A DNA stretch of 64,000 bases from positions 194,258 through 258,257 of the forward strand of contig CAVVJQ010000003.1 of NCBI GenBank assembly GCA_963748615.1, written 5' to 3'. The position numbers and the translations under genes are program-made. Below are positions 5,739 to 58,578 of the stretch, one piece after another; position 1 is the stretch's first letter; each line of letters begins with the position of its first letter. A model generated the notes under the pieces. It searched no databases and had not been told where the DNA came from. It saw nothing but the letters and a program-made list of their open reading frames with translations. The DNA comes from an uncultured Thermoplasmata archaeon. Lineage in GTDB: Archaea; Thermoplasmatota; Thermoplasmata; UBA10834.

Positions 5739-5820
5739 ACTGTTTCGGAGCTTTTTTGAGCATAATTATAAGTAATCATAAACAGATTTGAAGTAAAAAG
5801 GGCAGATTAGGAGAGATGGG

Positions 5821-24078: not shown

Positions 24079-25344
24079 GTGGAGACTGAACAGACTCTCG
24101 TCCTGATCTTCGTAGCGTTTCTAGCTGCGAAAATCGGCGGCGAGATCATGGAACGAATGAAATTACCTGCCGTGACTGGCGAGCTGATGGCAGGGGTGAT
24201 ACTAGGTCCATCGATATTGAATCTCATCACTGAACATGACACATTCTTCGATGTGCTCGCTCAGCTGGGTGCGACATTCCTCCTCTTCTCGGTCGGCATG
24301 GAGACCAAACTCTCTGACCTCAAGAAGGTAGGGATGATCGCTGGATCCGTCGCAGTGTTGGGAGTCATCGTTCCGTTCATCATGGGTTATTATGTTTCGC
24401 TGCTCCTGTTCGCCTCATCGATCGAGGCGATGTTCATCGGCGCCGCGCTGGTCGCAACGAGCGTTGGGATCACTGCAAGGGTGTTGCAGGACCTCAAGAT
24501 GATCAATTCGCAGGAAGCAAAGATCATCCTTGGCGCGGCCGTCGTCGACGACATACTGGCGATGATCGTCCTCACGCTCGTATCAGGAACCGCGACCGGG
24601 AGTCTGACCACGCTGAGTGTCGCTGTCGTCATCGCAGAAGCAGTGTGCTTCGTCGCCATCGTTACCATTCTGGGAACGAGAATAGTGAAGTACGCTTCGG
24701 GCAAGAGAGAGATCAGGCATGACAAGAATGTCAACGGAACTTGGGCAATCCACTACTCGACAAGGGCATTCAAGAGGGACAGCTGGTTCGACAAGCTCGT
24801 CCAGAAGGAGGCTCCCTTCGTCATCATCCTGGTGGTCGTCTTCTTCCTCTCGGCTGCGGCCTCGTTCGTCGGTCTAGCCGCCATAATCGGCGCGTTCTTC
24901 GCGGGACTCATATTCTCAGACACCAAGGACACTTACGAACTGGAACGCAAGTTCGAGCCACTCAACGTTCTTCTGGTCCCGTTCTTCTTCGTTGTCATGG
25001 GTGCGAGGGTCGATTTCGGCAACTTCTCAGCCATCGCCCCATACGCGATCATCCTGACGGTCGTCGCGATCCTGAGCAAACTCATCGGGTGTGGACTGGG
25101 CGCTGCGAAAAGGGGCGAGAAGACTGCGCTCATAGTCGGAGCGGGCATGGTGCCCAGAGGAGAAGTGGGCATCGTAGTGGCCATGATCGGCCTGAACATG
25201 GGGACTATAGGCAATGACATCTACTCCATCATAGTCCTCGTATCCATAGCCACGACAATCTACGCCCCGTTCCTCATCAAGACCATAATCAAGGCGGAGA
25301 ACAAGAAAGGGGGCAAACGAGGTTGGCCTCTCTCGAGCAAGTGA
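24079..25344 (+). CDS. cation:proton antiporter, CPA2 (second paralog), no KTN/RCK domain
   Basis: GAAVVDDILAMIVL, GAFFAGLIFS, multi-TM. GTG start 24079 lies ~32 nt downstream of ATTAAATA (a TATA-like box). Confidence 0.8.
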   Translation: METEQTLVLIFVAFLAAKIGGEIMERMKLPAVTGELMAGVILGPSILNLITEHDTFFDVLAQLGATFLLFSVGMETKLSDLKKVGMIAGSVAVLGVIVPFIMGYYVSLLLFASSIEAMFIGAALVATSVGITARVLQDLKMINSQEAKIILGAAVVDDILAMIVLTLVSGTATGSLTTLSVAVVIAEAVCFVAIVTILGTRIVKYASGKREIRHDKNVNGTWAIHYSTRAFKRDSWFDKLVQKEAPFVIILVVVFFLSAAASFVGLAAIIGAFFAGLIFSDTKDTYELERKFEPLNVLLVPFFFVVMGARVDFGNFSAIAPYAIILTVVAILSKLIGCGLGAAKRGEKTALIVGAGMVPRGEVGIVVAMIGLNMGTIGNDIYSIIVLVSIATTIYAPFLIKTIIKAENKKGGKRGWPLSSK

Positions 25345-25378
25345 CCTATCGGTGTTGGGAGGATAAGGAAAATAAGAT

Positions 25379-25407
25379 GTGCGGCCTCACAGCCGCACGG
25401 TTTTCTT
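25379..25407. terminator. bidirectional hairpin plus T-tract between convergent genes
   Basis: GTGCGGC-ctcaca-GCCGCAC (7-bp stem) followed by GGTTTTCTT on + and by ATCTTATTTT on -. It lies between the CPA2 stop (25344) and the C11 stop (25414). Confidence 0.55.
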
Positions 25408-25413
25408 GATCGT

Positions 25414-26814
25414 TTACTCGAAGTCCAGCACGCTCTCGTCGTAGGCCTGTGTGAACGTGAACACCATCTCGTCCCACCAGGTGTCGACCGTGAAGGCCAT
25501 GCCGTAATAGAGCGTGTTCAGACCGTAGAGCTCAGCGTCCTCGATGTCCTCGAACCAGTATGCCGGATTGATCCAATGGCTGCAACAGGTGAAGTAGATC
25601 GATATGCCCGAGGTTCTCAAGATGCCTCCGCCAGCAGCGGTCACATGGTTCTCATACACGACGACTTCATCCACACCCTCGACAATCGCGGTGGTCAGCG
25701 GGAGGAGTTCCGGTATCTTCTGGCCGAGGAGTTCAGCGTACAGACCGAGGTCGATGAACGGCAGCTGCTCTCCCTCGTATGTGGGTATCCTCGGGGTCTG
25801 AGATTCAGCCGACTCGATCGCACCTCTGTAGCTGCTGTCATCCATATAGCCACCCTCGAACATCTCCTTCGCCAGCGCATCGATGCTCTTGACCAGGTTC
25901 GTCACAGGCTCTCCTAGGCGCAGGAATGAAAGCGTCACGTCGGCGCAGTACTCACAGCCCTGTCCAGACTCGGAGACCAGGTTTTCGTAGAAGTCGATAT
26001 AGGAATCAACGACAGCGATTCCCACTTCCTGGACCGTCGGCGAATCCTCAGTCATCACTTCCAGGAATCCAGCATAGCCCATTCCTGGACCAGGCACGAG
26101 GTTGATCGATGCGAACATGTAGTCCGCGATGTACCTGTTCTCGTAGATGACCTCGATCATTGCGTTCAGACAGGCATCGTAGCCGAGGATCGTCAGCTTG
26201 TAGTCCGTATCAACAGTCTCCCTGAGCTGGGTCTGAGCGGCAGCCAATGAGGCAGCGGTCTCAGGAGTTGTCAGCCTTGATACCCAGCCATCAGTGCCGA
26301 TCGCAGGGGAGCTGTCATCGTAGCAGACGCCCCTCCATCCACCGCCGTGGTCCCAGAGCACGAGCATGTAGTAATCAGCCGGGGCGTATGTGAACGCGGT
26401 CACGACGGCCCAAGTCAGCTTGGTGCCATCACCCATGTCCACCTCGCCAGGGCAGTCTGCCTCAGGGAACAAATCGCAGTCACAATCCAGTTCCTGTGTC
26501 TCGGCATCGTAGTGTGATACTCCTTCTTCGATCAGGAGCCAGTGGGTGCCTTCAACATACGACCATGTATCCAGCAGCACGATGATGGTCACGCCGTTCT
26601 TGGATCCGACGGATTCCATTTCGAGCAGATCGTCGATCGCATAGCTCTCAAGGTTGTTGTCCCCGTCCAAGTAGACGAAGACGGTCCACGTGCCTGGCCC
26701 TTCTTCATCCACGGCTTTCGGGGCGCTGCCAGCATTCGCGATCATGCCGGTCATCGCCATCGAAGCGGACAGCAACAAACCCATAATCAAAACACAAGTT
26801 GGTGCTCTTCTCAT
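25414..26814 (-). CDS. secreted clostripain-like cysteine peptidase (family C11), paralog 1
   Basis: Signal-like MRRAPTCVLIMGLLLSASMAMTGMIANA. Motifs WTVFVYLDGDNNLE, HYMLVLWDHGGGW (His) and LTILGYDACLNAM (Cys). ATG 26814 is preceded by GGGGGAAG; the track start 26922 is probably too long. Confidence 0.75.
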   Translation of the reverse strand: MRRAPTCVLIMGLLLSASMAMTGMIANAGSAPKAVDEEGPGTWTVFVYLDGDNNLESYAIDDLLEMESVGSKNGVTIIVLLDTWSYVEGTHWLLIEEGVSHYDAETQELDCDCDLFPEADCPGEVDMGDGTKLTWAVVTAFTYAPADYYMLVLWDHGGGWRGVCYDDSSPAIGTDGWVSRLTTPETAASLAAAQTQLRETVDTDYKLTILGYDACLNAMIEVIYENRYIADYMFASINLVPGPGMGYAGFLEVMTEDSPTVQEVGIAVVDSYIDFYENLVSESGQGCEYCADVTLSFLRLGEPVTNLVKSIDALAKEMFEGGYMDDSSYRGAIESAESQTPRIPTYEGEQLPFIDLGLYAELLGQKIPELLPLTTAIVEGVDEVVVYENHVTAAGGGILRTSGISIYFTCCSHWINPAYWFEDIEDAELYGLNTLYYGMAFTVDTWWDEMVFTFTQAYDESVLDFE

Positions 26815-26840
26815 TTCTCTTCCCCCGTTAGTAACCATCC

Positions 26841-26860
26841 GATGGACATTTATGTCCATC
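26841..26860. promoter_or_regulatory. perfect 9+9 inverted repeat between the TATA-like box and the C11-1 start codon
   Basis: GATGGACAT-tt-ATGTCCATC. A TATA-like box (minus-strand TTATTATA) lies at ~26893-26900, so the palindrome falls at or just after the predicted TSS. Confidence 0.5.
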
Positions 26861-26953
26861 ACAGGTGTACTGACTCGCATGTTACATTGAGCTATAATAA
26901 TCTTCCTCGCTCCAAGCACCAATATAGGACAAACATGGAACGTGAGGACTATG

Positions 26954-27700
26954 TCAGGACTGGCGGTCGGACATTATCCTCAGGAATTCCTCAAGGTGTG
27001 CAGCGAGCGATTCGTTATCCGTGTACCCACATGCTGAGAGATCGGCAGCGGCCAAGAGTGCCGCCTTCCCATCGCTAATCACATCTGTCGCTATGAGACC
27101 ATCTCTGCGGACAACCTCGATATCCTTGGGGGCTTTCACAAAAGGGGTCGTGATGACCTTCACATGGACCCCGCGACTGACTGCGCTCCCGAACCTCTTG
27201 CCCAAACGCCTTCGGATTGCTGGAAACGATGGGGAGGATATTATGAAGGTGTGCTCCGCCTTGTCGATCATCTCACCGATCTTATCGAGCACACGGTTCT
27301 TCCCCAATATGGTGTAGACCAGCTGGGGGACGCCTTTGTCGGAGAGTATGTTGCGGACCGAATCTATTTTGGAGAAGGAGTTCTTGATCTCCACGATGAA
27401 TCGTTCGGAGAGCTCTGAAGGGGATATAGGAGAGAATATCCGAGGCCTACCTTGCTTCGGTTGAACAAAACCCTTGTCGCTGAGGGATATCATGACCTTG
27501 TACGAAGATGTCCTTGGAATCTGCGCGACGTCCGCTACAAAATTGGCAGAAGAAGGGCCGAGTGCCACGAGAGCGATATATGCTCTGGATTCGTAATCGG
27601 ACAACCCCAGTTTCGAAAGCGCTCCAGATATCTTGAGGTACTCCGCCATGAGTTCGTCAGCATTGCCACCTAGTCGTGCAATAGTCGCTTTGAGGTCCAT
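26954..27700 (-). CDS. TrmB-family transcriptional regulator (copy 1)
   Basis: LGLSDYESRAYIALVALGPSSANFVADVAQIPRTSSYKVMISLSDKGFV..GRPRIFSPISP wHTH plus TrmB-like C-domain. Confidence 0.8.
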   Translation of the reverse strand: MDLKATIARLGGNADELMAEYLKISGALSKLGLSDYESRAYIALVALGPSSANFVADVAQIPRTSSYKVMISLSDKGFVQPKQGRPRIFSPISPSELSERFIVEIKNSFSKIDSVRNILSDKGVPQLVYTILGKNRVLDKIGEMIDKAEHTFIISSPSFPAIRRRLGKRFGSAVSRGVHVKVITTPFVKAPKDIEVVRRDGLIATDVISDGKAALLAAADLSACGYTDNESLAAHLEEFLRIMSDRQS

Positions 27701-27768
27701 TTGTAGCAGTAATAGCTACATAAGGTTTAAATCATTGCCTGAAAATCTATCTCCGGGATAGGGATATC
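27701..27768. promoter_or_regulatory. divergent promoter region between trmB-like gene and tes
   Basis: Inverted repeat TGTAGC-agtaata-GCTACA (27702-27720) abuts the trmB start codon. TTTAAAT box at 27726-27732 sits ~37 nt upstream of the tes ATG. Confidence 0.45.
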
Positions 27769-29322
27769 ATGCTGACAAAAGACTCATCGTTAGCAAAGGG
27801 CTTGCCAAAGACCACGGAGAGCCTGTGTCCGGAGTGTCTGTCTATCATCCAAGCGACCATCCGCGAAGATAACGGGAAGGTCATTATGGAGAAGACATGT
27901 CCGCAGCACGGCGATTTCAAGGACGTCGTCTGGTCAGATGCAAAGACATACCTGAGGGTCGAGAAGTGGGCAAAGGATGGGGTGGGAGTCATTGATCCTG
28001 CCATACCAAAGGCGAAGCAGTGCCCGTTCGATTGCGGCCTCTGCGATCTTCACCTCAGCCATACCGCGCTTGCCAATCTCGATCTCACGAACAGGTGCAA
28101 CCTGAAGTGTCCTATATGCTTCGCGAACGCCAATTCTGCAGGTTACGTGTACGAACCGGACTATGACACAGTCGTAAAAATGCTCGAGCTACTGCGATCG
28201 CAGCGACCGGTGCCATGCCCAGCAGTCCAATTCTCCGGCGGGGAACCGACGATCTATCCACACTTCTTCAAGGTCATAAAGGCCGCCAGGGACATGGGTT
28301 TCGCACAGGTCCAAGCTGCGACGAACGGGATAGAATTCGCAAAGAGTCTGGAATTCTGCAAGAAGGCGAGCGAGGCCGGTCTTAACACATTGTACCTACA
28401 ATTCGATGGGATGAGGTCTGAGATTTACGAAAGGGCAAGAGGCAAGGACCTACTCGCCACGAAGCAGAAGGTCGTTGAGAATTTCAGGCAGTTGTCAACG
28501 CACCCATCGATAGTGCTGGTTCCCACGATAGTCAAAGGGGTCAACGACGACCAGGTCTGGCCCATACTCGACTATGCGCTCAGGAACATGGACGTCATCA
28601 GGGGAGTCAACTACCAACCCGTCGCATTCACTGGCAGGATGACCCGTGAGGAATTGGTGGAGGGGAGATACACGCTCACCGACCTGATACACGATGTCGA
28701 GAAGCAGTCAGGTGGGAAGATCAAGGCGTCTGACTGGTACCCGGTCCCGACAGTCGTGGCGGTTTCCGAACTCGTCGGTGCCATCGCGGGGAGGGACATG
28801 GTCACATTCACGAACCACACGCACTGCGGACTCGCGACCTACCTATTCGTGAAGGACAATGAACATGTGGTCCCGCTCACGAAATTCATAGATGTCGATT
28901 CACTGTTCACAGAACTGTACGAGCTGGCGAGGAAGGCAAGCGGTAAGAAGGTCCAGTTGTTCACGAAGCTGAAGGCGTACAGCCTGATCAAGGAACACAT
29001 CAGGAAGGACCAGCTGCCCGAGGGCATGAACGTCATGGAGTTCCTGAACGTGCTGAAGCGGGTCTTCTCAGAGGACACGAAGAAGGGGTTGTCCAAGTTC
29101 AGCTGGAACATGATGTACGTCGGCGCGATGCACTTCATGGACTCGTACAACTATGACATCGAGAGGGTGAAAAGATGCAGCATACATTACACCACCCCTG
29201 ATATGAAGCTGATACCGTTCTGCGCCTACAACTCTGGCCCGGTGTACAGGACCGATGTGGAGAAGCGCTTCTCCACCCCATTGGACGAGTGGAGAAAGAA
29301 GCACGGTGATCAGTACACGTGA
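27769..29322 (+). CDS. tes: radical SAM tetraether lipid synthase (Tes / GDGT-MAS family)
   Basis: N-terminal zinc ribbon CPECLSII...CPQHGDF, CPFDCGLC, radical SAM CNLKCPICF, SGGEPT. About 517 aa, immediately followed by ferredoxin and GGR. Confidence 0.75.
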   Translation: MLTKDSSLAKGLPKTTESLCPECLSIIQATIREDNGKVIMEKTCPQHGDFKDVVWSDAKTYLRVEKWAKDGVGVIDPAIPKAKQCPFDCGLCDLHLSHTALANLDLTNRCNLKCPICFANANSAGYVYEPDYDTVVKMLELLRSQRPVPCPAVQFSGGEPTIYPHFFKVIKAARDMGFAQVQAATNGIEFAKSLEFCKKASEAGLNTLYLQFDGMRSEIYERARGKDLLATKQKVVENFRQLSTHPSIVLVPTIVKGVNDDQVWPILDYALRNMDVIRGVNYQPVAFTGRMTREELVEGRYTLTDLIHDVEKQSGGKIKASDWYPVPTVVAVSELVGAIAGRDMVTFTNHTHCGLATYLFVKDNEHVVPLTKFIDVDSLFTELYELARKASGKKVQLFTKLKAYSLIKEHIRKDQLPEGMNVMEFLNVLKRVFSEDTKKGLSKFSWNMMYVGAMHFMDSYNYDIERVKRCSIHYTTPDMKLIPFCAYNSGPVYRTDVEKRFSTPLDEWRKKHGDQYT

Positions 29323-29333
29323 GGTGATTATCT

Positions 29334-29531
29334 TTGAAGAAGGACCAACTCGATGAGTTCGAAGTCAACATAGACAAGTGCATGCACTGCGGCGCTTGCG
29401 TGGGCTCGTGCCCTCAGAATGCCATCTACCTCAGGGAGGTAGTGCTTGAATTCAATGATAGCTGCACCTTGTGCAAGAGGTGCATAAAGGCGTGCCCGGT
29501 CGGTGCGATCAAACTCGTGGAGAGTGCCTGA
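29334..29531 (+). CDS. 2x[4Fe-4S] ferredoxin
   Basis: CMHCGACVGSCP and CTLCKRCIKACP. Confidence 0.88.
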   Translation: MKKDQLDEFEVNIDKCMHCGACVGSCPQNAIYLREVVLEFNDSCTLCKRCIKACPVGAIKLVESA

Positions 29532-29532
29532 T

Positions 29533-30720
29533 ATGAAGCGAGACTATGACATTGTGATCGTGGGTGCGGGACCTGCAGGTTCCATGACTGCGAAGTGGGC
29601 AGCGAAGAATGGCGCTCGCGTCCTAATGGTGGAGAAACGTCAGGAGATCGGCTCGCCGGTCAGATGCGGTGAAGGGATCTCCAGGGCGTGGCACGACTCC
29701 GTCGGGCTCAAGCTGGATAAGAAGAGCGTGGCGTGGGAAGTCAAGGGCGCGAAACTCGTAGCACCCAACGGCACTCCGTTCTACTTGGGAGAGAAGATGG
29801 CGGGGGACGAGGTCGGCATCGTCATCGACCGTGTCTTCTTCGACAAGCAGCTTGCGAGAGATGCCATAAAGGCGGGCGCGGACCTTCAGCTCAAAGCTTC
29901 GGCGACCAAGCTCATCAAGGAAGGGGACAAGGTCGTGGGAGTGCACGTTAATTCGATGGATGGATCCCGAGATATAAGCTGCGGCTGCGTCGTCGCGGCC
30001 GATGGCTTCGAATCCCAGGTAGGCAGATGGGCAGGCATCGACACTAGCCTCGCGCCAAGGGACATCACCACCTGCTTCCAGTACAGACTCACAAACATCG
30101 ATATCGAGCACGAATACTGCGAATTCGTGCTGGGGAGCAAAGCGCCGGGAGGATACATCTGGCTGTTTCCGAAGAACGAAGATACCGCCAATGTCGGGAT
30201 CGGCATGCAGCTCACGAAGTTGCACGAGACAGCTGACGTCAAGAAGCATCTGGACAAGTTCATCCAAGGTGACCCCAGACTCAGGAAAGGGATGCCACTG
30301 GAGTTAGTCAGCGGTGCGGTTTCGATATGTGCTCCCATCGAGAAGACTATAGGCGATGGGGTCCTCATCGTGGGTGACGCTGCTAGACAGATCGACCCGA
30401 TCACCGGTGGCGGAATATCGAACTCATGCAAGTCGGGAAAGGTCGCAGGAGAGGTCCTTGCGAAAGCAACCCGAGAGAACGACTTCAGCGAGAAGTCGCT
30501 CATGCGATACGAGAACGGCTGGCGCAACCTGATCGAGAACCAGCTTTACAGGAACTGGCTCGCGAAGGAGAAGCTCGTCACCCTATCTGACGAGACTTTC
30601 GACAAGGTGATTGCGACATTGAATGAAGTGGGTGTGGAGAAGATGTCCACACTCGCGATACTGAAGGCGATAGAGGATAAGTATCCGGAACTCGTCAAGG
30701 AATTCCAGGAATTCCTCTGA
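29533..30720 (+). CDS. digeranylgeranylglycerophospholipid (geranylgeranyl) reductase, FAD-dependent
   Basis: MKRDYDIVIVGAGPAGS, RCGEG, PGGYIWLFPK, VGDAARQIDPITGGGI. ATG 29533 lies 1 nt after the ferredoxin stop. Confidence 0.88.
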   Translation: MKRDYDIVIVGAGPAGSMTAKWAAKNGARVLMVEKRQEIGSPVRCGEGISRAWHDSVGLKLDKKSVAWEVKGAKLVAPNGTPFYLGEKMAGDEVGIVIDRVFFDKQLARDAIKAGADLQLKASATKLIKEGDKVVGVHVNSMDGSRDISCGCVVAADGFESQVGRWAGIDTSLAPRDITTCFQYRLTNIDIEHEYCEFVLGSKAPGGYIWLFPKNEDTANVGIGMQLTKLHETADVKKHLDKFIQGDPRLRKGMPLELVSGAVSICAPIEKTIGDGVLIVGDAARQIDPITGGGISNSCKSGKVAGEVLAKATRENDFSEKSLMRYENGWRNLIENQLYRNWLAKEKLVTLSDETFDKVIATLNEVGVEKMSTLAILKAIEDKYPELVKEFQEFL

Positions 30721-39763: not shown

Positions 39764-39992
39764 CGAAGAGGTTAATGTACAAATCCGCACATTAATAGTT
39801 CGGGGATACCAGCGCATAGGATATGACGTGATAGCAGGGAGCATGAGGCGAAATCAGAACCGCTCTAGACACGGGCATGCAAGAACGACTGGCCGAATCG
39901 AGCCACGATAACATTGAACTAGCGCCGATGCATTCCGGGTATTGCGAGATGAACAGACCGCATAGGTTCTCATCTTGCATGGGGGGAAAATC

Positions 39993-41315
39993 ATGATAGG
40001 TAGGGGGATAGCATTAGCCGTTGCCTTGTGTGGATTGTTATCAACAGCATTCATGGCAGGTGGTGTTCCTGCCCAGTTCGCATCGATTTCGATGGATGAT
40101 TCTCTGGCTAGCGTTCCTGATGATCAAGAATTGCAGGAGAGAGATTCTGAGAGATCATGGACCATCGGAATGTATTGGGCGGCCGATAACAACTTAGACA
40201 GCATGACTGAAACCTTCCTCGACATCTGGCTTGATAATATCTGGAACCGTGATGATGTCGCTCTGGCGATATTCATCGACAGGTTGGAGCTTCCAGCGAA
40301 CATAAGCACGGTCACCGAGGAAGGGTGGGTCGAAAGAGAATATCTTGGAGATGTGAACTCATCTAACCCACAGACACTATCAGACTTCATCGAGTTCTTC
40401 ATGACTGCGGAGTATCTCGAAGCTGAGCACTACATGCTCGTTGTTCAAGACCATGGCCTCGGCTACCTTGGCATCTGTGTCGATGAGGGTGAAGAGGGTA
40501 GACCATGGATGAGCATCGACGGACTCGGAAGAGCTTTGGATATGGCAACAGTTGCGACGAGCAAGAAACTCGATATAATCGACCTCGATGCATGCACGCT
40601 CGCAACGGTCGAAGTGGCCTACGAGCTCAGAAATAAGGCATCATACCTTGTTGCTTCTGAAATTGCAGTGCCATTCGACGGGCTCAACTATATTGCTCTC
40701 CTCGATGGGTTGTCGAAGGAACCAGACAAACTGCCGCTTGACCTCGCGTGCAAGATGGTAGACGATTACGAGGAGTGGTACTCTGCACCTCTGGGCACAT
40801 ATCCCACACTGTATCCGTACATGCAGGATTTCGCCACGCTTTCTGTGATGGACCTGAGTGAGATGGACGGCGTCGGGACCGCATTCGCGGCGCTCTCTGA
40901 AGAGCTTCTTCCGAAGGACGGGACATTGATCACACCATTCAATACTGCAGCCCAGCAGCATTTCGTCGCCATGTGGGAGAACAACATGGGCTGTGGATTC
41001 AACTCGGATATCCGTGGGATGTTCGGAGAACTCGCAGAGGTCCTCGCAGAGTCCCATCCGGTCGTTGCATCTCTGTGTGAGGACATCGTGAGCGCAGCAG
41101 ACGATGTGATCGTGAAGAACTGGGAGAGCTGGAGGACGAGGGATAGGCTGTCCGGGATGGCCGTATTCGTGCCACCGTCTATAGGCATATATGATGTGAA
41201 TTGGGACAGTCTCTATCGAGTATACGACACGCTGGGACTTGATTTCGTGACCGATAGCGGGTGGGACGAAATCATCCTGAAGTATTTCTGTACGATGAGA
41301 CAGCACGGGACATGA
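39993..41315 (+). CDS. secreted clostripain-like cysteine peptidase (family C11), paralog 2
   Basis: Signal-like MIGRGIALAVALCGLLSTAFMAGG; WTIGMYWAADNNLD, HYMLVVQDHGLGY (His), LDIIDLDACTLATVE (Cys). The track start is TTG 39975. Confidence 0.75.
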   Translation: MIGRGIALAVALCGLLSTAFMAGGVPAQFASISMDDSLASVPDDQELQERDSERSWTIGMYWAADNNLDSMTETFLDIWLDNIWNRDDVALAIFIDRLELPANISTVTEEGWVEREYLGDVNSSNPQTLSDFIEFFMTAEYLEAEHYMLVVQDHGLGYLGICVDEGEEGRPWMSIDGLGRALDMATVATSKKLDIIDLDACTLATVEVAYELRNKASYLVASEIAVPFDGLNYIALLDGLSKEPDKLPLDLACKMVDDYEEWYSAPLGTYPTLYPYMQDFATLSVMDLSEMDGVGTAFAALSEELLPKDGTLITPFNTAAQQHFVAMWENNMGCGFNSDIRGMFGELAEVLAESHPVVASLCEDIVSAADDVIVKNWESWRTRDRLSGMAVFVPPSIGIYDVNWDSLYRVYDTLGLDFVTDSGWDEIILKYFCTMRQHGT

Positions 41316-50081: not shown

Positions 50082-50324
50082 TCAGACCTTCTCGCTTTCC
50101 GACATCATCTGACCGAGGTGCTCGGTCATCTTCGCAAACATCTTCTGGAGCACATCGCCTTTTACGAGTCTAACGTGCCACATCCCATCAGGGGCTGATT
50201 CGGCGAGGACCAACAGCTTGTCTCCAGCCTGGATGCCGAATCGCTTCCTGAGCTCGGCAGGCAACACGACCTGCCCTCTCTCTCCAACGGTCGCACTCCC
50301 GAACAGCTCTGGCTTTCCGAACAT
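50082..50324 (-). CDS. AbrB/SpoVT-domain DNA-binding protein
   Basis: VGERGQVVLPAELRKRFGIQAGDKLLVL. Confidence 0.75.
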   Translation of the reverse strand: MFGKPELFGSATVGERGQVVLPAELRKRFGIQAGDKLLVLAESAPDGMWHVRLVKGDVLQKMFAKMTEHLGQMMSESEKV

Positions 50325-50592: not shown

Positions 50593-53571
50593 TCACTTCT
50601 CCTTGAGTGACCGGAACGTCTCCGTCTTACGCCCCTCCCTCTGAAGCGGTCCCGGTGCCCACCAACCCCATTTGCCGAGTACGGTCATCATCGCAGGGAC
50701 TATGTAGGTCCGCACGACCATCGCATCCAACAGTATCGCGAATGCGAGGGCGAAGCCGATCTCCTTGAGCATCATGGTACTTGAGATCATCATCATTGCG
50801 AAGGCCGATCCCATGATCACTGCGAGAGCAGTGATGATGCCGCCAGTCCAATCCAACGATTCGACTATTGCGTCACGGTCGGACTTCCCCTTGTGCATCT
50901 CTTCCCTGATCCTTGTCAGTATGAAGACGTTGTAGTCCATCCCGATGCCCATAAGCATGATGAACAGAATCAGAGGGATGATCCAGAGGATCGGTTCCCC
51001 CATCCCGTATCCGAACAGGCCGACTGTCGCAGCGAAGGCCCAGGATATGCTAAGCATGATCGATATTATGGCGAACAGTGAGAGCAGGAATGCTCCGAGA
51101 ACGATCAACAGGACGATGAATATGCCGATGACCACGACGATCTCCATCAATCTGAACTGCTGGTCGAGATCCTTTGCGAGGTCGGCAATCACAGCTGTGG
51201 AGCCACCGACATATATGACTGCTGATGAGAGGGCAGGATTGTCTTCTCGCAGAGTCGAGACCGTGGCTCGTATGTCATCGATGGTGCTGATTGATTCCGG
51301 AGTCATCGGTCCTGTTTCGAGGACAATCGTGATCAGCACAGTGCGATTGTCAATGCCCACAGTCTCCAACATGAGCTCTTCCTGAGCAGTTCTCGAGTCA
51401 GTGGACAATGCGCTCAGGTTCCTGTAATCGATCGCGGTGACCTTCGGGTTCGTCGTCCCTGTAACCTGCTTCACATTGTCCAGGGAGGACAGCGAAGTGG
51501 TCATTAGAGCGATGGCATCCAGAGCCCCCAGGCTGAAATTGCCATCTGCATAGACGGGAGAGTCGAATGTGACCACGATCTCGGTCGGCATTATCCGGCC
51601 TGCACCGAAACCGTCAGTCATGGCAACGATACCTTCGTTGCTCTCTACGCCAGATGACATGCCGCTGATGAAATCAAAGCTCGTCTCAGCCGTAAGGAAC
51701 ACATAGGTCGTAGGCACGGAAACGAGAAGGGCAACCACCATGACCGCCTTCGCGTGCTTGATCGAGAATGTCGCGGCCTTGTGGAAGTAACCACGATGAC
51801 CCTGAGCCCTCTTGGCCATCACGTTCTGGGCGAACTTCTTCCAACGCTGGCCCCTGGTCGGCCAGAAGATCCTGTTACCCAAAAGGAGCAGCAGGGAAGG
51901 CACAAGGGTCAACGCTACCATCAGAGATATGCCGATGGCCATTCCCAGCACCAGACCCATGGTCCTGATCATGGAGAAATCGGATATCGAGAGGGCGAAG
52001 AATGATATCATGACGGTCGCCCCGCTCGTAGATATGCTCTCACCGGCCCATGTGACCGATGTCCTGACCGCTTCCTCGCGGGTGTGCCCCTTGATCCGTT
52101 CCTCCCTGAACCTGGCGACTATGAATATTGCATAGTCAGTGCCCACACCCATCAGGATGCTGAAAAGCATCGTTACGACGGTGTAGTGTATGTCCGCCAC
52201 GAGGGAACCGACAACGAATACTATCGCCTGGCTCACCCCCAACGCGACCATGACGCTCCCCAACGGAAGGAATTGAGCGACCACTGATCTGAAGAACACG
52301 CCCATGAGCACGATTATGAGGATGATCGTGACCGGTTCGATCAACATCATCTCCTTCCCCATCGATGATTCCATATCTGCAGATATGGCAGCATCCCCAG
52401 TGACATAGGTCGTGGAATCGGAACCAAGATGTGCTGATTTCGCTTCAGACACCATATCTCTAAGGATATCGACATTCACCATGATCGGCTTCTCGCCATC
52501 CTCCAAGTAGCTCGACCCCTTTGAGAATGACATGACAATGAGCATCGTGCTATTGTCCGGGCTCACGAAGCCGGAGAGATATTCTTCAGGGATGGTGATT
52601 GGATAATCCGATATTGTGCCCGATGCGACGATCTGAGTGGCCAAAGCGCCGGCTTCAAGATAATCATAATCAGGACCCAGCGAGTAAACCTCCTCGAGGA
52701 AGGCGATGTCCTCAATCCCTGAGATTCCGGATATCATAGAGAGCGAGAACGAATGAATCGTGCTGGAGTTCGAGAACGTCGTGATATTGAAGGAATACAA
52801 GATGGCAGTCATCATTGCCTTCTCATCGTCTGTAGGCATGCCATCGATGAAGAGAGGCGCTGCATAGGATATCGCGTCCTCAGCCCTTGCCACCGGATCG
52901 GATACGAGGGCGATGTCGTCTGAGGTCGCATTCCATCCGCTTGCGAATAGCGAGAAGTACCCGTATGTGGCCTGCTTGACTGTATCATCCTCTTCCGAGA
53001 GCATCATATCCAGAGCCGCAAGAGTGATCGCGTAGGCCTCGGCATCCCGCGACGAAGTATCGAGGCTGGCATTCGTGTAATTCCAGTTATTGAGATGCAG
53101 CGAAGGTATGCCATAGAAGAGGTTCGCAGTCAGATTGACCTCAGATTCCACGACATAGATCATCGGTCCCATCTCGACAACCGCAGCGGTGATGGCACCC
53201 GTGTAGACCGAATAGACGGTCGTCATCGATTCCAGATATGCAAGACCGTCTTCCACCTTGATGCGGTATTCAAGGTCCAAACAGAAATCTCTCATGGACG
53301 GACTGGTCACATCGGTCCCGCTTATGACGATCATGAGGGTGCTGTTGGGTACGGCCGTGGGGAATTGCTCATCGATGATATCCTGAGCGATGAGGGACTC
53401 CTTGTCACCTGCAACCATCTCGGATTCCTGGTATACCAGCACATCATTCACTTTCAGCACTGCAGGCACCACGAACGCAAGGATGACTATCCAGGCGATG
53501 AGTATCTTCTTGTGGTGACGAATAACCCCGTCAGCTAGTTTTTCGAATATCATCGGTGCACCCTCCGACAT
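50593..53571 (-). CDS. MMPL/RND-superfamily membrane transporter
   Basis: 992 aa with two 6-TM bundles, each after a large loop. MGVGTDYAIFIVARFREE and MGIGMDYNVFILTRIREE are duplicated MMPL motifs. Confidence 0.85.
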   Translation of the reverse strand: MSEGAPMIFEKLADGVIRHHKKILIAWIVILAFVVPAVLKVNDVLVYQESEMVAGDKESLIAQDIIDEQFPTAVPNSTLMIVISGTDVTSPSMRDFCLDLEYRIKVEDGLAYLESMTTVYSVYTGAITAAVVEMGPMIYVVESEVNLTANLFYGIPSLHLNNWNYTNASLDTSSRDAEAYAITLAALDMMLSEEDDTVKQATYGYFSLFASGWNATSDDIALVSDPVARAEDAISYAAPLFIDGMPTDDEKAMMTAILYSFNITTFSNSSTIHSFSLSMISGISGIEDIAFLEEVYSLGPDYDYLEAGALATQIVASGTISDYPITIPEEYLSGFVSPDNSTMLIVMSFSKGSSYLEDGEKPIMVNVDILRDMVSEAKSAHLGSDSTTYVTGDAAISADMESSMGKEMMLIEPVTIILIIVLMGVFFRSVVAQFLPLGSVMVALGVSQAIVFVVGSLVADIHYTVVTMLFSILMGVGTDYAIFIVARFREERIKGHTREEAVRTSVTWAGESISTSGATVMISFFALSISDFSMIRTMGLVLGMAIGISLMVALTLVPSLLLLLGNRIFWPTRGQRWKKFAQNVMAKRAQGHRGYFHKAATFSIKHAKAVMVVALLVSVPTTYVFLTAETSFDFISGMSSGVESNEGIVAMTDGFGAGRIMPTEIVVTFDSPVYADGNFSLGALDAIALMTTSLSSLDNVKQVTGTTNPKVTAIDYRNLSALSTDSRTAQEELMLETVGIDNRTVLITIVLETGPMTPESISTIDDIRATVSTLREDNPALSSAVIYVGGSTAVIADLAKDLDQQFRLMEIVVVIGIFIVLLIVLGAFLLSLFAIISIMLSISWAFAATVGLFGYGMGEPILWIIPLILFIMLMGIGMDYNVFILTRIREEMHKGKSDRDAIVESLDWTGGIITALAVIMGSAFAMMMISSTMMLKEIGFALAFAILLDAMVVRTYIVPAMMTVLGKWGWWAPGPLQREGRKTETFRSLKEK

Positions 53572-53636
53572 GTTGTCATTGTCTTACTAACAAGAATGTC
53601 GTTAATTCCAAACTAACATATAAGTATTTCGCAATC

Positions 53637-53656
53637 ATATCTACACTGGTAGATAT
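53637..53656. promoter_or_regulatory. perfect 8+8 palindrome in the MMPL/trmB divergent promoter
   Basis: ATATCTAC-actg-GTAGATAT, ~12 nt downstream of the AT box ACATATAAGTATTT (53616-53629) and 17 nt upstream of the TTG start, which is preceded by GAGGAGGA. Confidence 0.5.
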
Positions 53657-53673
53657 CCAAGAGGAGGATACGT

Positions 53674-54429
53674 TTGACCCATCAAAAAGTTATTGATAGG
53701 CTCATCTCACTCGGCTTGACAACATACGAGGCAAAAGTATTCTCCGCCCTTACAAGATTGGGAGAAGCCCGAGTCAGCGAGATTCACACAGTCGCCGAGG
53801 TTCCCAGATCAGCGATTTATGAGACACTGGATCGCCTGGAACACAGGGGGATCATCGAGACTTCGACGGGAAGGCCCAAGAGATTCAGGGCATTACCGCC
53901 TAAGATCGCGATATCGAAGATAGAATCTGAGATCATGAGCGCGGTCAAAGACGCCCGAGAAGGGCTTGAGGAACTCGCACACGCGCCGCCTCAGGGAGCC
54001 TCGGACGTTCGCATCTGGGCCATCAAGGGAAAGACAAGGATAAAGGAACGGATAGAACACATGATAGACTCAACGGAATCGGAAATGATTATCGCAGGTT
54101 TCCCAGAGCTGCTCATATCTTTCGAGAGGCTCTGGAAGAAGGCCAAGGCAAAGAAGATAAAGATCCGATTCGCGACGATGGATCCTGATAAGATCAAGAC
54201 ATTGAAAGATTACGGAGAAGTTCTGCGCCCCAAATCCAAGATAAAGATGACAGAGATGAATCCTCCCAAGATCCTGTTCATCCGTTCAGACAAGAAGCTC
54301 ATCCTTCTGGCCAGTGAGTACAAGGACGATAAGCAGATAGAGGACATGACCGCATTCTGGACGGATGATCAGTCGATAGTCGGATTCATCAACTATCTTA
54401 TGGAACCGCTTACGAACCACTATGATTGA
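53674..54429 (+). CDS. TrmB-family transcriptional regulator (copy 2)
   Basis: LGLTTYEAKVFSALTRLGEARVSEIHTVAEVPRSAIYETLDRLEHRGIIE..GRPKRFRALPP. Confidence 0.8.
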   Translation: MTHQKVIDRLISLGLTTYEAKVFSALTRLGEARVSEIHTVAEVPRSAIYETLDRLEHRGIIETSTGRPKRFRALPPKIAISKIESEIMSAVKDAREGLEELAHAPPQGASDVRIWAIKGKTRIKERIEHMIDSTESEMIIAGFPELLISFERLWKKAKAKKIKIRFATMDPDKIKTLKDYGEVLRPKSKIKMTEMNPPKILFIRSDKKLILLASEYKDDKQIEDMTAFWTDDQSIVGFINYLMEPLTNHYD

Positions 54430-54579
54430 ACAGGACTTACTTTTTCCTGCAACCTGATGCAATGAACACATGTGTCCTTCGGACACGCACTGACCTACGC
54501 CAGGATTAACTATCAGAGCGACAATCACGTGGTAGGGGAACCGGTCTGATCGGACCGGATAGCTCGGGGGGAATCAGAG

Positions 54580-55893
54580 TTGAGGACCGTAGGATTTCGT
54601 AGTGAGTATTGTAGAGTCGCAACCGTCTTCGCCACTGCCGTGATCATCGTGAGTTCTATAATGGTAGGAGTATGCCGCGCTGACGACCAGGTGAATGTCA
54701 ATCAAGAGGATAACGCGAGGAAGTGGACCATAGCGATGTATTGGGCCAGTGACAACAGCCTGGACGAATACACGGAATACTTCGTCCAACTATGGATGGA
54801 GTATTTGAAGAACAGAGAGGATGTGGCTCTCTGCGTCTTCATCGACAGGCTGACGATGCCTGCAAACCTGAGCACACTGACCGAGACGGGATGGGTGGAG
54901 GTCCGGAGTTATGAGGAGATCAACTCGTCCTCACCGGACACGCTGAGTTCGTTCATCCAGTACGCCTTGACCGAGCCAACGCTTTCAGCGGACAACTTCA
55001 TGCTTATGATCCAGAACCACGGGAACGGGTACCTCGGGCTCTGCTCCGATGAGGGGCTCCCGGACTCCGAATTGCTCAAGGTCTGGATGTCCATAGACGA
55101 CCTGGGCAAGGGAATCAACGATGCGATCGACAAGACCGGCGAATCGATAGACATCATCTCTCTCGACGCGTGCACTCTCGGAACCGTGGAAGTGGCCTAT
55201 GAATTGAGAGGGACGGCATCCTACATGGTGGCATCCCAGCTCGGGGTACCGTTCGATGGACAGAACTACATAGACATGCTCTCAGGCCTATCCGTGGATC
55301 CGGACATAGAGCCATTGGACTTAGCCTGCAAGCTAGTGGACGACTATGAAGCGTGGTACTCTGCCCCGCTTCACACGCTCCCGACACTCTACCCATACAT
55401 GCAGGATTTCGCATCCCTATCGGTCATCGACCTGAAGGCCTTGGACCCGCTTATCGATGCGTTCATCGATTTCAAGGAGGCTGTGATGCCGAAGGACAAC
55501 GCCCTTGGCAAGTATCTGAAGACAGCCGCCCTGCAGTCGGATGTATCCCTGTGGATGAACAACATGGGTACCTGGTTCTATCCAGACATTACGATCATGT
55601 TCACATTACTGGGGGAGAGCACAGCAGAGTCACATCCAGAGGTCTCGAAAGCCTGCGATGCGATCGTGGTAGCGGCTGACAGAGTCATTGTACATGATTG
55701 GGCAAGCTGGAGGATGCGTGGACTAGTCACGGGTCTCTCAGTGTTCGTATGTCCGTCGATAGGGATCTATGAGGTATACTGGGACTCTTTCGACAGAGCC
55801 TACGACAACGTCGGGCTGGATTTCGTCGATGACACCGAATGGGACCTTGTGCTACAGGCGTACTTCTACACTCAGAAGCAGTACGGTGGATGA
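54580..55893 (+). CDS. secreted clostripain-like cysteine peptidase (family C11), paralog 3
   Basis: Hydrophobic N-terminus VATVFATAVIIVSSIMVGV; WTIAMYWASDNSLD, NFMLMIQNHGNGY (His), IDIISLDACTLGTVE (Cys). Long blocks identical to paralog 2. Confidence 0.75.
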   Translation: MRTVGFRSEYCRVATVFATAVIIVSSIMVGVCRADDQVNVNQEDNARKWTIAMYWASDNSLDEYTEYFVQLWMEYLKNREDVALCVFIDRLTMPANLSTLTETGWVEVRSYEEINSSSPDTLSSFIQYALTEPTLSADNFMLMIQNHGNGYLGLCSDEGLPDSELLKVWMSIDDLGKGINDAIDKTGESIDIISLDACTLGTVEVAYELRGTASYMVASQLGVPFDGQNYIDMLSGLSVDPDIEPLDLACKLVDDYEAWYSAPLHTLPTLYPYMQDFASLSVIDLKALDPLIDAFIDFKEAVMPKDNALGKYLKTAALQSDVSLWMNNMGTWFYPDITIMFTLLGESTAESHPEVSKACDAIVVAADRVIVHDWASWRMRGLVTGLSVFVCPSIGIYEVYWDSFDRAYDNVGLDFVDDTEWDLVLQAYFYTQKQYGG

Positions 55894-56046
55894 CCGCACG
55901 AAGAATGGATCAGCAAGATTGTGCCAGAATCATGGCAGGAATAGCATGGCTAGTCGATGGATATGAGATTGCAGACGATGGCCACCTAAGATTTAAGTCC
56001 ACTTACGGCTTGCTGGCATCATTGATGACAAGGCGAGGGGAGTCAT

Positions 56047-56556
56047 ATGGATGAATCACCGCCCGTGGAGTATCGCAAGTACAAGGACGGCGACCTCGAA
56101 GCTTGCCGTTGCCTCTGGGAACAGCTCACGATCACTCACAGAACCATCTATGACAATCCAAGCATTGGTGGCTCTGATCCAGGCAAGTTCTTCGACGGAC
56201 ATCTTGACAAGGTAGGTGCAGATGGCATATGGGTGGCAGACGCGCAGGGCACGATCGTCGGGCTCATGGGACTCGAGGTGGAAGACGACGAAATGACCAT
56301 TGAGCCGCTCGTGGTAGATCAATCATGGCGAGGGAGAGGTATCGGAAGTCGGTTAATGGAGATCGCCGTTCAGGAGGCAACGAGGCTATGCGCCACGTAC
56401 CTTAACGTAAAGCCAGTTGCTAGGAACATCGAAGCTTTCAGATTCTTCACAGACAACGGCATGTTGAATATCGGCCATGTCGAACTATTCATAGATTTGA
56501 AGAACAGGGAATGGAAGGATGGGCTCAGATTGCATGATATCGATCTGAGATATTGA
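56047..56556 (+). CDS. GNAT N-acetyltransferase
   Basis: LVVDQSWRGRGIGSRLMEIAVQEA (Q/R-x-x-G-x-G/A motif). Confidence 0.8.
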   Translation: MDESPPVEYRKYKDGDLEACRCLWEQLTITHRTIYDNPSIGGSDPGKFFDGHLDKVGADGIWVADAQGTIVGLMGLEVEDDEMTIEPLVVDQSWRGRGIGSRLMEIAVQEATRLCATYLNVKPVARNIEAFRFFTDNGMLNIGHVELFIDLKNREWKDGLRLHDIDLRY

Positions 56557-57018: not shown

Positions 57019-58578
57019 TTGGTCCAGACAATGCACACATCCTGCGTCAACCGCCGCTGGGAAGAGCCTTTTTCTAAACCTTTCGCCATCCAGTTTGCAG
57101 GGGAGGTGCCTCGGGTGAAAGGGATCAAACTCAACTCGAACCAAAGGTTGAAAGTCCTGACGGATGACCAGATAGAAATGGTACATGAAGCCGCTCTTAG
57201 GATACTAGAGAGGACAGGTGCCAGATACGACAGTGATGATGCCAGAAAGCGGCTTCAGGACGCGGGAGCCGAAGCCCATCCCACGAGGAAGGGAGTCATC
57301 ACATTCCCGAGATCGATGGTCGACGACGCGATAAAGAAAATCACCAAACGCAACATATTCTACGCCCGAGACCAGAGATGGGATGTCGAATACGATGGTG
57401 AGCACATGTTCCCGTACGCAGGTGGGGGCGACCCGAAGATACTCGACCTTGAGACAGGTCGCCCGCGGCATTCGACATATAGGGATGTCGAGATGGCAGC
57501 CAGACTAGGGGACGCTCTCGAGAACAATCATACTGCATCCAGCCTCGTCATGGCGAACGACGTCCCATCGGAGTTGCTGGTCCTGAAGACCATGGAGGCG
57601 ACCATGAAGAACTCTGGCAAGATTGTCACCGGATACGCCCAGAACAAGGAGACTGTTGATTTCATGGTGAAGATGTGGGCTTGCGTCGCGGGAGGGACCG
57701 AGGAACTCAGGAAGAGACCGTTGTTCAGCCTAGGCGGGTCTCCGAGCAGCCCTCTCACATTTGCAGAACACAATTGCGATGTCATTTTACGGAGCGCCGA
57801 GCAAGGCATCCCGTTCTCCATCCTTTCGTGCCCGATCTGTGGCTCAACTGCTCCCATGACTCTTGGTGGAGGGTTGGCGCAGCAGAATGCAGAACAGCTC
57901 GCCGGGATCATGCTGATCCAGACGGTCACCACTGATCTTCCAGTCTACTACTCTGGCAGAGTCTGCATCATGGATCCCCGGTCAGGAAGAGATCTATGGG
58001 GAGTTCCGGAGGAAGGACTAGTGTCGGTGGCCATCGTGCAGATGGCACGCAGGTACGGAATGATAGCAGATACGAATGGAATGGCATCGGACATCACCAG
58101 ATGGGACATGCAAATGGGGTACGAACAGATGATGACAGCCTTGATGCCGGCTCTGGCTGGCGCGGAGAGCGTCTCCGGGCTCGGATGCGGCTGGGAAGGG
58201 GCCAGCAGCCTCGAGATGATGGTCATCAATAACGAGGTCTTCAATGATATTGCAAGGATTCTGCGCGGGATCCGGATTGATGAGGGAAGTCTCGCGATAG
58301 ATCTGATAGACAAGGTGGGTCACATGGGCAACTTCCTTGCTGAACGCCATACGATGGATAGCATCCGCGAGGGGGAGGCGAGGGCCTCGTCGCTTTGGGA
58401 CAAACGAAACTCGGAGAAGGCAGCGAAGGAAGGGTTCAAGCCCATACAGGATTCCGCAAAGGATCAGGTCAACAGATTGCTGAAGGAACACTCACCGCTG
58501 CCGCTGAAAAAGGATGTGGAGAGAGAGATCGGGCAAATCATCAAAGAGGCTGGCAAGACATTCATATGGAGGCACTAG
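57019..58578 (+). CDS. MttB-superfamily methyltransferase, non-pyrrolysine type
   Basis: LKVLTDDQIEMVHEAALRILERTGARYDSDDARKRLQDAGAE is a typical MttB N-terminus. The frame is continuous with no internal TAG. The true start may be GTG 57115, preceded by GGGGAGGTG. Confidence 0.75.
   Translation: MVQTMHTSCVNRRWEEPFSKPFAIQFAGEVPRVKGIKLNSNQRLKVLTDDQIEMVHEAALRILERTGARYDSDDARKRLQDAGAEAHPTRKGVITFPRSMVDDAIKKITKRNIFYARDQRWDVEYDGEHMFPYAGGGDPKILDLETGRPRHSTYRDVEMAARLGDALENNHTASSLVMANDVPSELLVLKTMEATMKNSGKIVTGYAQNKETVDFMVKMWACVAGGTEELRKRPLFSLGGSPSSPLTFAEHNCDVILRSAEQGIPFSILSCPICGSTAPMTLGGGLAQQNAEQLAGIMLIQTVTTDLPVYYSGRVCIMDPRSGRDLWGVPEEGLVSVAIVQMARRYGMIADTNGMASDITRWDMQMGYEQMMTALMPALAGAESVSGLGCGWEGASSLEMMVINNEVFNDIARILRGIRIDEGSLAIDLIDKVGHMGNFLAERHTMDSIREGEARASSLWDKRNSEKAAKEGFKPIQDSAKDQVNRLLKEHSPLPLKKDVEREIGQIIKEAGKTFIWRH

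Follow-up and report, generated by a model that had tools for sequence, protein, structure and literature searches.

Two loci in a 64-kb window (the whole stretch of DNA that we analysed) from an uncultured Thermoplasmata archaeon (GCA_963748615.1, contig CAVVJQ010000003.1) share a gene order in which a TrmB-family regulator is followed on the same strand by a C11 (clostripain-family) cysteine peptidase and diverges from a gene for a membrane, lipid or transport function. In locus 2, the regulator TrmB2 and the peptidase C11_2 stand back to back with an MMPL/RND-superfamily transporter; in copy 1, TrmB1 and C11_1 stand back to back with an operon for tetraether lipid synthesis. We conclude, with a probability of roughly 0.75, that the window holds conserved pairs of a regulator and a membrane gene, next to which two C11 genes with promoters of their own were inserted independently. 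On this reading, locus 2 is two unrelated things side by side, a TrmB2–MMPL unit and a C11_2 insertion, and the order TrmB to C11 recurs because there were two independent insertions.

A sequence-only reading had described the transporter, regulator, peptidase and palindrome of locus 2, all of which we recovered in place from open reading frames (ORFs), Pfam and the sequence itself, and had pointed out that the order recurs. A tblastn search of the window with the locus 2 proteins returned copy 1 (27700–25414, − strand), together with a third C11 gene, C11_3, that had been overlooked. The interpretation stands in part: each regulator diverges from a membrane, lipid or transport gene, each spacer has a palindrome near the predicted start, and the pairings are strongly conserved. 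The proposal that TrmB–C11 is an envelope-remodelling module duplicated as a unit fails the refutation tests that the reading had set for itself, both on adjacency and on the relationships of the genes.

Features of locus 2 (window coordinates, strand, description):

50593–53571, −: MMPL/RND-superfamily transporter, 992 amino acids (aa) (Pfam PF03176, 351.5 bits, two stretches)
53585–53631, no strand: deeply conserved spacer block, candidate TrmB2 operator (alignment of 9 loci, ~17 distinct loci inspected)
53618–53626, no strand: TATA-like box, the only one in the MMPL/TrmB2 spacer, within the second half of the conserved block
53637–53656, no strand: perfect palindrome ATATCTAC-ACTG-GTAGATAT, candidate operator (read from the sequence, relatives compared)
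53663–53668, +: GGAGGA ribosome-binding site of trmB2
53674–54429, +: TrmB2, TrmB-family regulator, 251 aa (PF01978, 71.3 bits; first half of Regulator_TrmB, PF11495)
54430–56038, +: 1609-bp insertion carrying C11_2 (homology with L009 and L081 interrupted there)
54441–54445, +: T5 run, 12 nt past the trmB2 stop, possible archaeal termination signal
54488–54495, +: C11_2 upstream motif CACTGACC, which recurs at C11_2 orthologues
54504–54513, +: C11_2 TATA-like box GATTAACTAT
54541–54558, +: C11_2 leader hairpin CCGGTC-N6-GACCGG
54566–54571, +: C11_2 G-rich ribosome-binding site
54580–55893, +: C11_2, C11 (clostripain-family) cysteine peptidase, 437 aa (Peptidase_C11 PF03415, 120.7 bits)
56047–56556, +: GNAT acetyltransferase gene, directly 3' of TrmB2 in genomes without the C11_2 insertion

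Features of copy 1, and the third peptidase gene:

25308–26959, −: insertion of ~1.65 kb with C11_1, its own promoter, leader and terminator-like hairpin
25414–26922, −: C11_1 (tblastn, Pfam)
26954–27700, −: TrmB1 (PF01978, 72.9 bits)
27701–27768: TrmB1–Tes spacer, 68 bp
27702–27720: palindrome of this spacer, TGTAGCT-N5-GCTACA
27726–27732: TATA box ATTTAAA, the only one in this spacer
27769–29322, +: Tes, radical-SAM tetraether lipid synthase (NCBIfam Tes, 643.7 bits against a cut-off of 450)
29503–30720, +: GGR (Pfam)
39975–41315, +: C11_3, third paralogue, 53–56% identical to C11_2, with no adjacent regulator and facing an aminotransferase gene

Conserved regulator pairs and inserted peptidase genes

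Orthologues of TrmB2 were collected by protein look-up (85, 79, 62, 60, 57 and 42% identity; 42–86% overall) and by scanning metagenomes with a TrmB2 alignment, which added 19 orthologous loci, 16 of them with upstream sequence; the relatives' genomes are metagenome-assembled and incomplete. An MMPL orthologue lies divergently upstream of TrmB2 in L001, L009, L080–85, L087–88, L096–102, L104–111 and L114, and does so in 16/16 informative metagenome loci. At the look-up loci (L080/81, L082, L083, L084, L085 and L087/88), the transporter facing TrmB2 has ~990 aa, and in L082 it is split into two called genes. The only informative exception is L086 (JBGLNF01; 5725–6849), in which MMPL is reduced to a 375-aa N-terminal remnant. 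The regulator there is intact, and the locus represents a natural uncoupling of the pair. The gene on the 3' side of TrmB2 differs between loci (GNAT, TBP, saccharopine dehydrogenase, the solute-binding protein SBP_bac_5 or a PorA-like protein). It is a C11 gene solely in the window and in L001; none of the 19 metagenome loci has a co-oriented C11 gene downstream of TrmB2, and in L109 a distant C11 fragment lies ~0.9 kb from the regulator in convergent orientation.

The TrmB1 neighbourhood was read in eight places around five orthologues (61–71% identity), with downstream genes seen where the contig reaches. In all eight, Tes–ferredoxin–GGR(–PMT) faces TrmB1 across a spacer of 68–69 bp, a length that is fixed at every TrmB1 locus read (61–97% identity; L060, L089–L095 and L134–L136), and TrmB1 is followed directly by a convergent gene for a Na+/H+ exchanger and then by the gene for a ~1470-aa LTD protein. 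A C11 gene was found in none of the eight (0/8). The family is large and uniform, with 812 matches, and nearly all of the 120 listed have 248 aa. We regard TrmB1 as a strong candidate for a regulator devoted to the synthesis of tetraether lipids.

To survey the peptidases, we scanned a C11 alignment against one genome per species, which yielded 79 loci (44 archaeal and 35 bacterial), and ran a hidden Markov model built from 63 TrmB-family sequences on every ORF there. A TrmB gene is present at three of the 79 loci, all in syntenic close relatives of the window genome: directly upstream of a 93–94%-identical C11_2 orthologue in L001, directly upstream of an 84%-identical C11_1 orthologue in L060, and 7 kb from a C11_3 orthologue in L009. 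Where 1.5 kb or more of upstream sequence is available, TrmB adjoins C11 at two of the 35 archaeal loci and at none of the 33 bacterial ones. Outside these relatives, close and distant orthologues of both regulators occur without C11. The peptidases likewise have lives of their own: C11_2 orthologues of 66–73% identity (L002–L007 and L011) sit in other contexts with no TrmB gene within 8 kb, those in L002, L003, L005 and L007 next to the A/V-ATPase subunit I gene (V_ATPase_I), and C11_1 orthologues of 75–80% identity (L043, L056, L065 and L077) adjoin unrelated genes.

The borders of both insertions can be read from relatives that lack them. In L009 and L081, which are syntenic sister genomes, TrmB2 is followed directly by the acetyltransferase gene, with no C11. 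Homology of the window DNA with these two breaks off precisely with the trmB2 stop (54429) and is picked up again at 56039; we therefore recognize a 1609-bp insertion in the window and in L001, in place of which L009 and L081 have 57 bp. C11_2 thus appears to have entered the gap separating trmB2 from the acetyltransferase gene in an ancestor that the window genome and L001 have in common. In copy 1, homology with TrmB1 loci devoid of C11 breaks at ~26960 and resumes at ~25307, so C11_1 also lies within an insertion, of ~1.65 kb. The comparison places this event between trmB1 and the Na+/H+ exchanger gene, apparently earlier, in an ancestor shared with L060. We found no terminal direct or inverted repeats, no unusual G+C content and no DNA similarity between the two C11 insertions; given normal G+C and no repeats, there is no sign of a mobile-element mechanism.

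The relationships among the genes also separate the two loci. A neighbour-joining tree of 62 C11 sequences joins the C11_2 and C11_3 groups as sisters and puts C11_1 in a separate large archaeal clade; C11_3, which has no regulator beside it, is the closest paralogue of C11_2 in the window. TrmB2 scores 84–96 bits against several other TrmB-like proteins and 68.6 bits against TrmB1, which in turn scores 71–81 bits against other TrmB-like proteins and 66.6 bits against TrmB2. From the tree and these scores it follows that the two pairs are not products of one unit duplication.

Both C11 genes carry promoter and leader elements that, on comparison of relatives, are their own and travel with them into unrelated genomic contexts. 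Upstream of C11_2, the arrangement CACTGACC-N7-9-TATA-like box recurs at orthologues in unrelated contexts (L002–L005 and L007) and is followed by a GC-rich hairpin and a G-rich ribosome-binding site; a variant, CACTGGCC, lies upstream of C11_3 orthologues. C11_2 and C11_3 orthologues share CACTG(A/G)CC 7–13 nt before the TATA-like box (54488–54513 and 39870–39920 in the window; L002–L005, L007 and L008–L010), which suggests a common regulator for this peptidase subfamily.

The region upstream of C11_1 (26815–26933, − strand) is shared with seven relatives (L060, L043, L056, L065, L077, L046 and L024) and comprises, in order, TTGTCCTA, the TATA box TTATTATAGC, GAGTCAGTA, a hairpin, the ribosome-binding site GGGGGAAGAGA and an ATG. 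Because of these conserved elements and the lengths of the orthologues, the start of C11_1 is likely to be the ATG at 26814 (~466 aa), the start of the longest ORF being too far upstream. The hairpin, GATGGAC-N6-GTCCATC, is flanked by AGTA...TACT and has the compensatory form GATGAAC/GTTCATC in L046. RNAalifold predicts a conserved hairpin with double changes in three pairs and a covariation term of ~0, too little covariation to call it an RNA element over a DNA palindrome; the C11_1 leader may be an element of the RNA or a site for a transcription factor. An Rfam scan of 24000–57000 at E values up to 1 gave no match, so the conserved C11 leaders are not known RNA families.

Candidate operators in the two spacers

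The spacer between MMPL and trmB2 contains a block of two parts, TACTAACA-N5-GTCGTTA (53585–53604) and ACTAACA-TATAAGTA-TTTCG (53612–53631), the second of which includes the TATA-like box. Its columns are invariant or nearly so across the nine aligned loci, and the consensus TACTAACA-N5-GTCGTTA-N7-8-(T/A)ACTAACATATA(A/T)...ATTYCG is kept even in the 42%-identical TrmB2 orthologue; this TACT block is single in the window. TACT is a half-site common to characterised TrmB-family operators (TACT-N3-AGTA, TACT-N7-8-GAGTA and ATAATACT repeats), which are positioned at the B-recognition element (BRE)/TATA box or where transcription starts (PMC4158304). By this likeness, 53585–53631 is a candidate TrmB2 operator that would overlap a shared bidirectional promoter.

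The palindrome noted in the sequence-only reading (53637–53656) is indeed perfect, and it covers the predicted transcription start of trmB2, ~11–30 nt 3' of the TATA-like box. Taken alone it is just marginally above chance: when the 102-bp spacer is shuffled, ~2% of the shuffles contain a perfect inverted repeat whose arms reach 8 bp or more and whose loop does not exceed 10 nt, and the window has ~18 inverted repeats of the same class. It becomes convincing because the arms are kept in five relatives while the 4-nt spacer varies. The arms are retained in L001, L009, L081 and L082 around a variable centre (ACTG, AATT, ATTG, GTTG or CTCG), and L097 has a symmetric double change, ACATCTACT-CCAT-AGTAGATGT. 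The palindrome resembles the TGM site TATCAC-N5-GTGATA (PMC4158304), and we regard it as a clade-specific candidate autoregulatory operator. TrmB2 has the marks of a divergent regulator, namely a conserved divergent order and a conserved symmetric site in the spacer. At copy 1, the palindrome TGTAGCT-N5-6-GCTACA has invariant arms and a free spacer in 7/7 loci.

Further copies of the palindrome (at most three mismatches) and of the TACT block were sought across the window and found in the spacer itself only, and otherwise at chance level; no C11 gene in the window has either regulator-spacer motif upstream of it. The sequence therefore gives no evidence for TrmB2 targeting any C11 promoter. 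With no shared operator and with separate promoters for both C11 genes, co-transcription would depend on read-through, which could still occur. A scan for bacterial-type promoters and terminators, with models ill-suited to archaea, gave nothing beyond the expectation from shuffled sequence.

By analogy with characterised systems, MMPL/TrmB2 and the Tes operon/TrmB1 would most simply each be a local autoregulated repressor (or dual regulator) at a shared bidirectional promoter. TrmB2 dimers would bind the TACT-containing repeats that flank or overlap the BRE/TATA region (53585–53631) and, in this clade, also the palindrome over the trmB2 start (53637–53656). Bound TrmB2 would obstruct TBP/TFB or RNA polymerase and thereby repress MMPL as well as trmB2, and a ligand sensed by the C-terminal domain, plausibly the hydrophobic substrate of the transporter, would relieve repression. 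Mycobacteria offer a parallel. In M. abscessus, a divergently encoded TetR repressor of mmpS5-mmpL5 (MAB_4384) acts at a palindromic operator, as was shown experimentally (PMC5895659). This repressor and the MarR-type Rv0678 of M. tuberculosis (mmpS5-mmpL5) share with TrmB2 a small dimeric helix-turn-helix regulator divergent from an MMPL gene, a palindromic operator in the shared spacer and a model in which both genes are repressed until a ligand relieves them (PMC5895659). They differ in regulator family (TetR/MarR instead of TrmB), in the archaeal TBP/TFB promoter logic and in the MmpS partner, which the archaeal pair lacks; the archaeal pair is known from sequence alone.

It is possible, if unlikely, that the palindrome at 53637–53656 is instead the site of another factor, or a chance or RNA-level feature, and that TrmB2 acts through the TACT block only or as a non-specific chromatin-like protein. 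The palindrome is missing at TrmB2 loci of at most 72% identity, though TrmB2 and the TACT block persist there; its chance expectation of ~0.02 per spacer is not negligible, and TrmBL2, the best structural match of TrmB2, binds DNA without sequence specificity (PMC4158304). Set against this are the retention of the arms beside a freely varying spacer, the symmetric compensatory change in L097, a position over the predicted start and a likeness to the TGM site that fit repression by the TrmB family, and the analogous invariant palindrome in the same position in the copy 1 spacer.

Weighing the recurrent order

Several observations weigh against two independent insertions beside conserved pairs. 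Insertion twice within 30 kb directly 3' of, and co-oriented with, TrmB genes is improbable (P ~0.005, a rough and post hoc figure for naive random placement of 3 C11 and 2 TrmB genes among ~60 genes). No strong terminator separates trmB1 from C11_1, so some read-through coupling may occur. Binding of TrmB2 to either spacer motif is a prediction, and conservation of the palindrome ends at ~79% identity, so that it might be another factor's site. The direction of the events was deduced by parsimony from metagenome-assembled genomes that are incomplete (a single insertion as opposed to many losses plus relocation).

A broader proposal would make TrmB1 and TrmB2 lipid or hydrophobe sensors, with PLD-like domains that read the membrane state, for Tes–ferredoxin–GGR and the MMPL exporter, and would have genes for secreted C11 peptidases captured twice in this genus, so that read-through added surface proteolysis to the regulon. 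We consider this distinctly unlikely. If it were true, the two would be the first transcription factors dedicated to the synthesis and export of membrane lipids in archaea; a narrow literature search found no link of the TrmB family to MMPL/RND or tetraether synthesis, and no transcription factor that controls tetraether synthesis in archaea or export by MMPL.

Convergent recruitment, in which independently inserted genes were kept behind TrmB genes and read-through now couples the peptidase to a membrane or transport regulon as a young, genus-specific arrangement, seems to us improbable. In its favour are the same relative position and orientation twice (the naive ~0.005), the lack of a T-rich terminator between the trmB1 stop and the C11_1 promoter, and only a short T5 run after trmB2. 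However, each C11 gene retains the full promoter and leader known from other genomes, the sister genome JAHIRF01 has C11_1 without C11_2, a close C11_1 orthologue in L065 stands apart from TrmB genes, and the estimate of ~0.005 was made once the pattern had been seen. Repeated loss of C11 from an ancestral TrmB–C11 pair was rejected on parsimony, because C11 would have had to disappear from all sampled lineages of both regulator families, and both groups of C11 orthologues would have had to move to other conserved contexts, the A/V-ATPase neighbourhood among them. A functional TrmB–C11 module that was duplicated whole, with both copies connected to a membrane-lipid gene and remodelling the envelope, is hardly credible: the same order and strand twice within 30 kb, each time divergent from a membrane-related gene, and the similar divergence of the regulators (TrmB1/TrmB2, 24% identity) and peptidases (C11_1/C11_2, 26%) speak for it, but the adjacency is missing at 33/35 archaeal and 33/33 bacterial C11 loci, both regulators have orthologues without C11, the sister of C11_2 is C11_3, which has no regulator, TrmB1 and TrmB2 each have closer relatives than one another, and the two insertions share neither DNA similarity nor an operator.

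Showing that the module does not exist prevents a false lead, and what remains is useful: one TrmB regulator tied to MMPL across Thermoplasmata and another tied to the tetraether synthase operon. These conserved pairs merit follow-up, above all the Tes operon/TrmB1, and the two spacers offer concrete operator candidates. The C11 genes, with their portable promoters and leaders, illustrate the movement of secreted-peptidase genes in protein-degrading archaea.

Regulator, transporter and peptidase proteins

TrmB2 belongs to the TrmB family by its PF01978 match (71.3 bits against a cut-off of 25.6; TrmB1 reaches 72.9 bits), and its start codon at 53674 is backed by orthologues, which vary between TTG/GTG/ATG at the position aligned with it. 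Tyr49 does not vary among 27 orthologues and corresponds to the DNA-recognition tyrosine, Y50 of the recognition helix in Pyrococcus furiosus TrmB (PMC4158304). An AlphaFold2 model (pLDDT 85) combines a winged helix with a long helix and an alpha/beta domain; among Protein Data Bank (PDB) entries it matches TrmBL2 best (5bqt/5box/5bpd), followed by TrmB (3qph), and its C-terminal half resembles PLD-fold proteins. The model thus gives TrmB2 a predicted TrmBL2-like architecture of winged helix, long helix and PLD-like C-terminal domain. The PF11495 match covers profile positions 1–121 of 233 only, and the 251-aa protein, whose model ends after the PLD-like domain, has no sugar-binding subdomain. 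TrmB2 also scores below every NCBIfam cut-off for TrmB, TrmBL1 and TrmBL2 (35.6 against 530 bits for TrmBL2). With the subdomain missing and the cut-offs unmet, 'sugar-specific' is a mere family label here.

TrmB2 shares with TrmBL2/TrmBL3 (P. furiosus PF0496 and T. kodakarensis TK0471) the PF01978 winged helix with its conserved recognition tyrosine, the long dimerisation helix, the PLD-like first half of the effector domain, a length of ~250–264 aa and the lack of a sugar-binding subdomain, and its best structural matches are to TrmBL2. Its candidate sites, TACT repeats and an inverted repeat resembling TGM, located at the TATA box and transcription start, follow the pattern of characterised TrmB-family members. 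It differs from TrmBL2 in sequence (~20% identity) and apparent role: TrmBL2 is an abundant, largely non-specific chromatin protein, whereas TrmB2 looks dedicated to one divergent gene, and its neighbourhood has no link to sugar metabolism.

The transporter has two PF03176 repeats in a protein of ~1000 aa, which places it among MMPL proteins. Compared with NCBIfam MmpL3, HpnN, BstA, actII and HAE3, it reached no cut-off, with sub-threshold matches to actII, HAE3, MmpL3 and HpnN, and for this reason we left its substrate class unassigned. A 351-aa protein with faint squalene-hopene-cyclase-repeat (prenyltransferase-like) matches adjoins MMPL in L082 (1851–2906), L083 (2841–3896) and L085 (2695–3750); it is missing from the window between MMPL and an AbrB-like gene (50082–50324). 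An ABC-2 exporter follows in L085 and in the window. The prenyltransferase-like neighbour and the exporter hint that the compound handled by the MMPL cluster is an isoprenoid or is otherwise hydrophobic.

C11_2 is a clear member of its family (120.7 bits against 25.8), with H147 and C198 (DAC motif) invariant in the three window paralogues; the codons of the catalytic dyad are at 55018 (His147) and 55171 (Cys198). Its PDB sequence matches are the C11 proteases 3uws, 4yec and 6n9j, DAC motif included, and it aligns to PmC11-type structures. Its length is 417 aa in the collection's gene call, but a conserved GGGGGG ribosome-binding site favours the TTG at 54580. All three window C11 proteins have a hydrophobic signal-like N-terminal segment, and the 129 homologues of C11_2 are mostly from Thermoplasmata. 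Together, these features suggest that C11_2 is probably an exported or membrane-anchored clostripain-like cysteine peptidase. C11 peptidases are considered extracellular peptidases of sedimentary Thermoplasmata, present in several gene copies and used for protein degradation (PMC6461988, PMC9585477). The window proteins resemble those of Thermoprofundales/MBG-D in the C11 domain, the His/Cys dyad, the signal-like segment, the presence of several paralogues per genome and hosts that are uncultured Thermoplasmata of sediments or groundwater. They differ in that the window lineage is not established as Thermoprofundales and that here the peptidases are known as genes. From clostripain itself, C11_2 is set apart by a score far below the NCBIfam equivalog cut-off (35 against 550 bits).

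Beyond the acetyltransferase gene, the window encodes a 519-aa MttB-superfamily (trimethylamine methyltransferase-like) protein (57019–58578, + strand), whose 397 bits fall short of the 525 bits that NCBIfam sets for the equivalog. Paralogues of this superfamily occur near C11 genes in several Thermoplasmata loci (L011, L015, L030, L064, L077 and L078).

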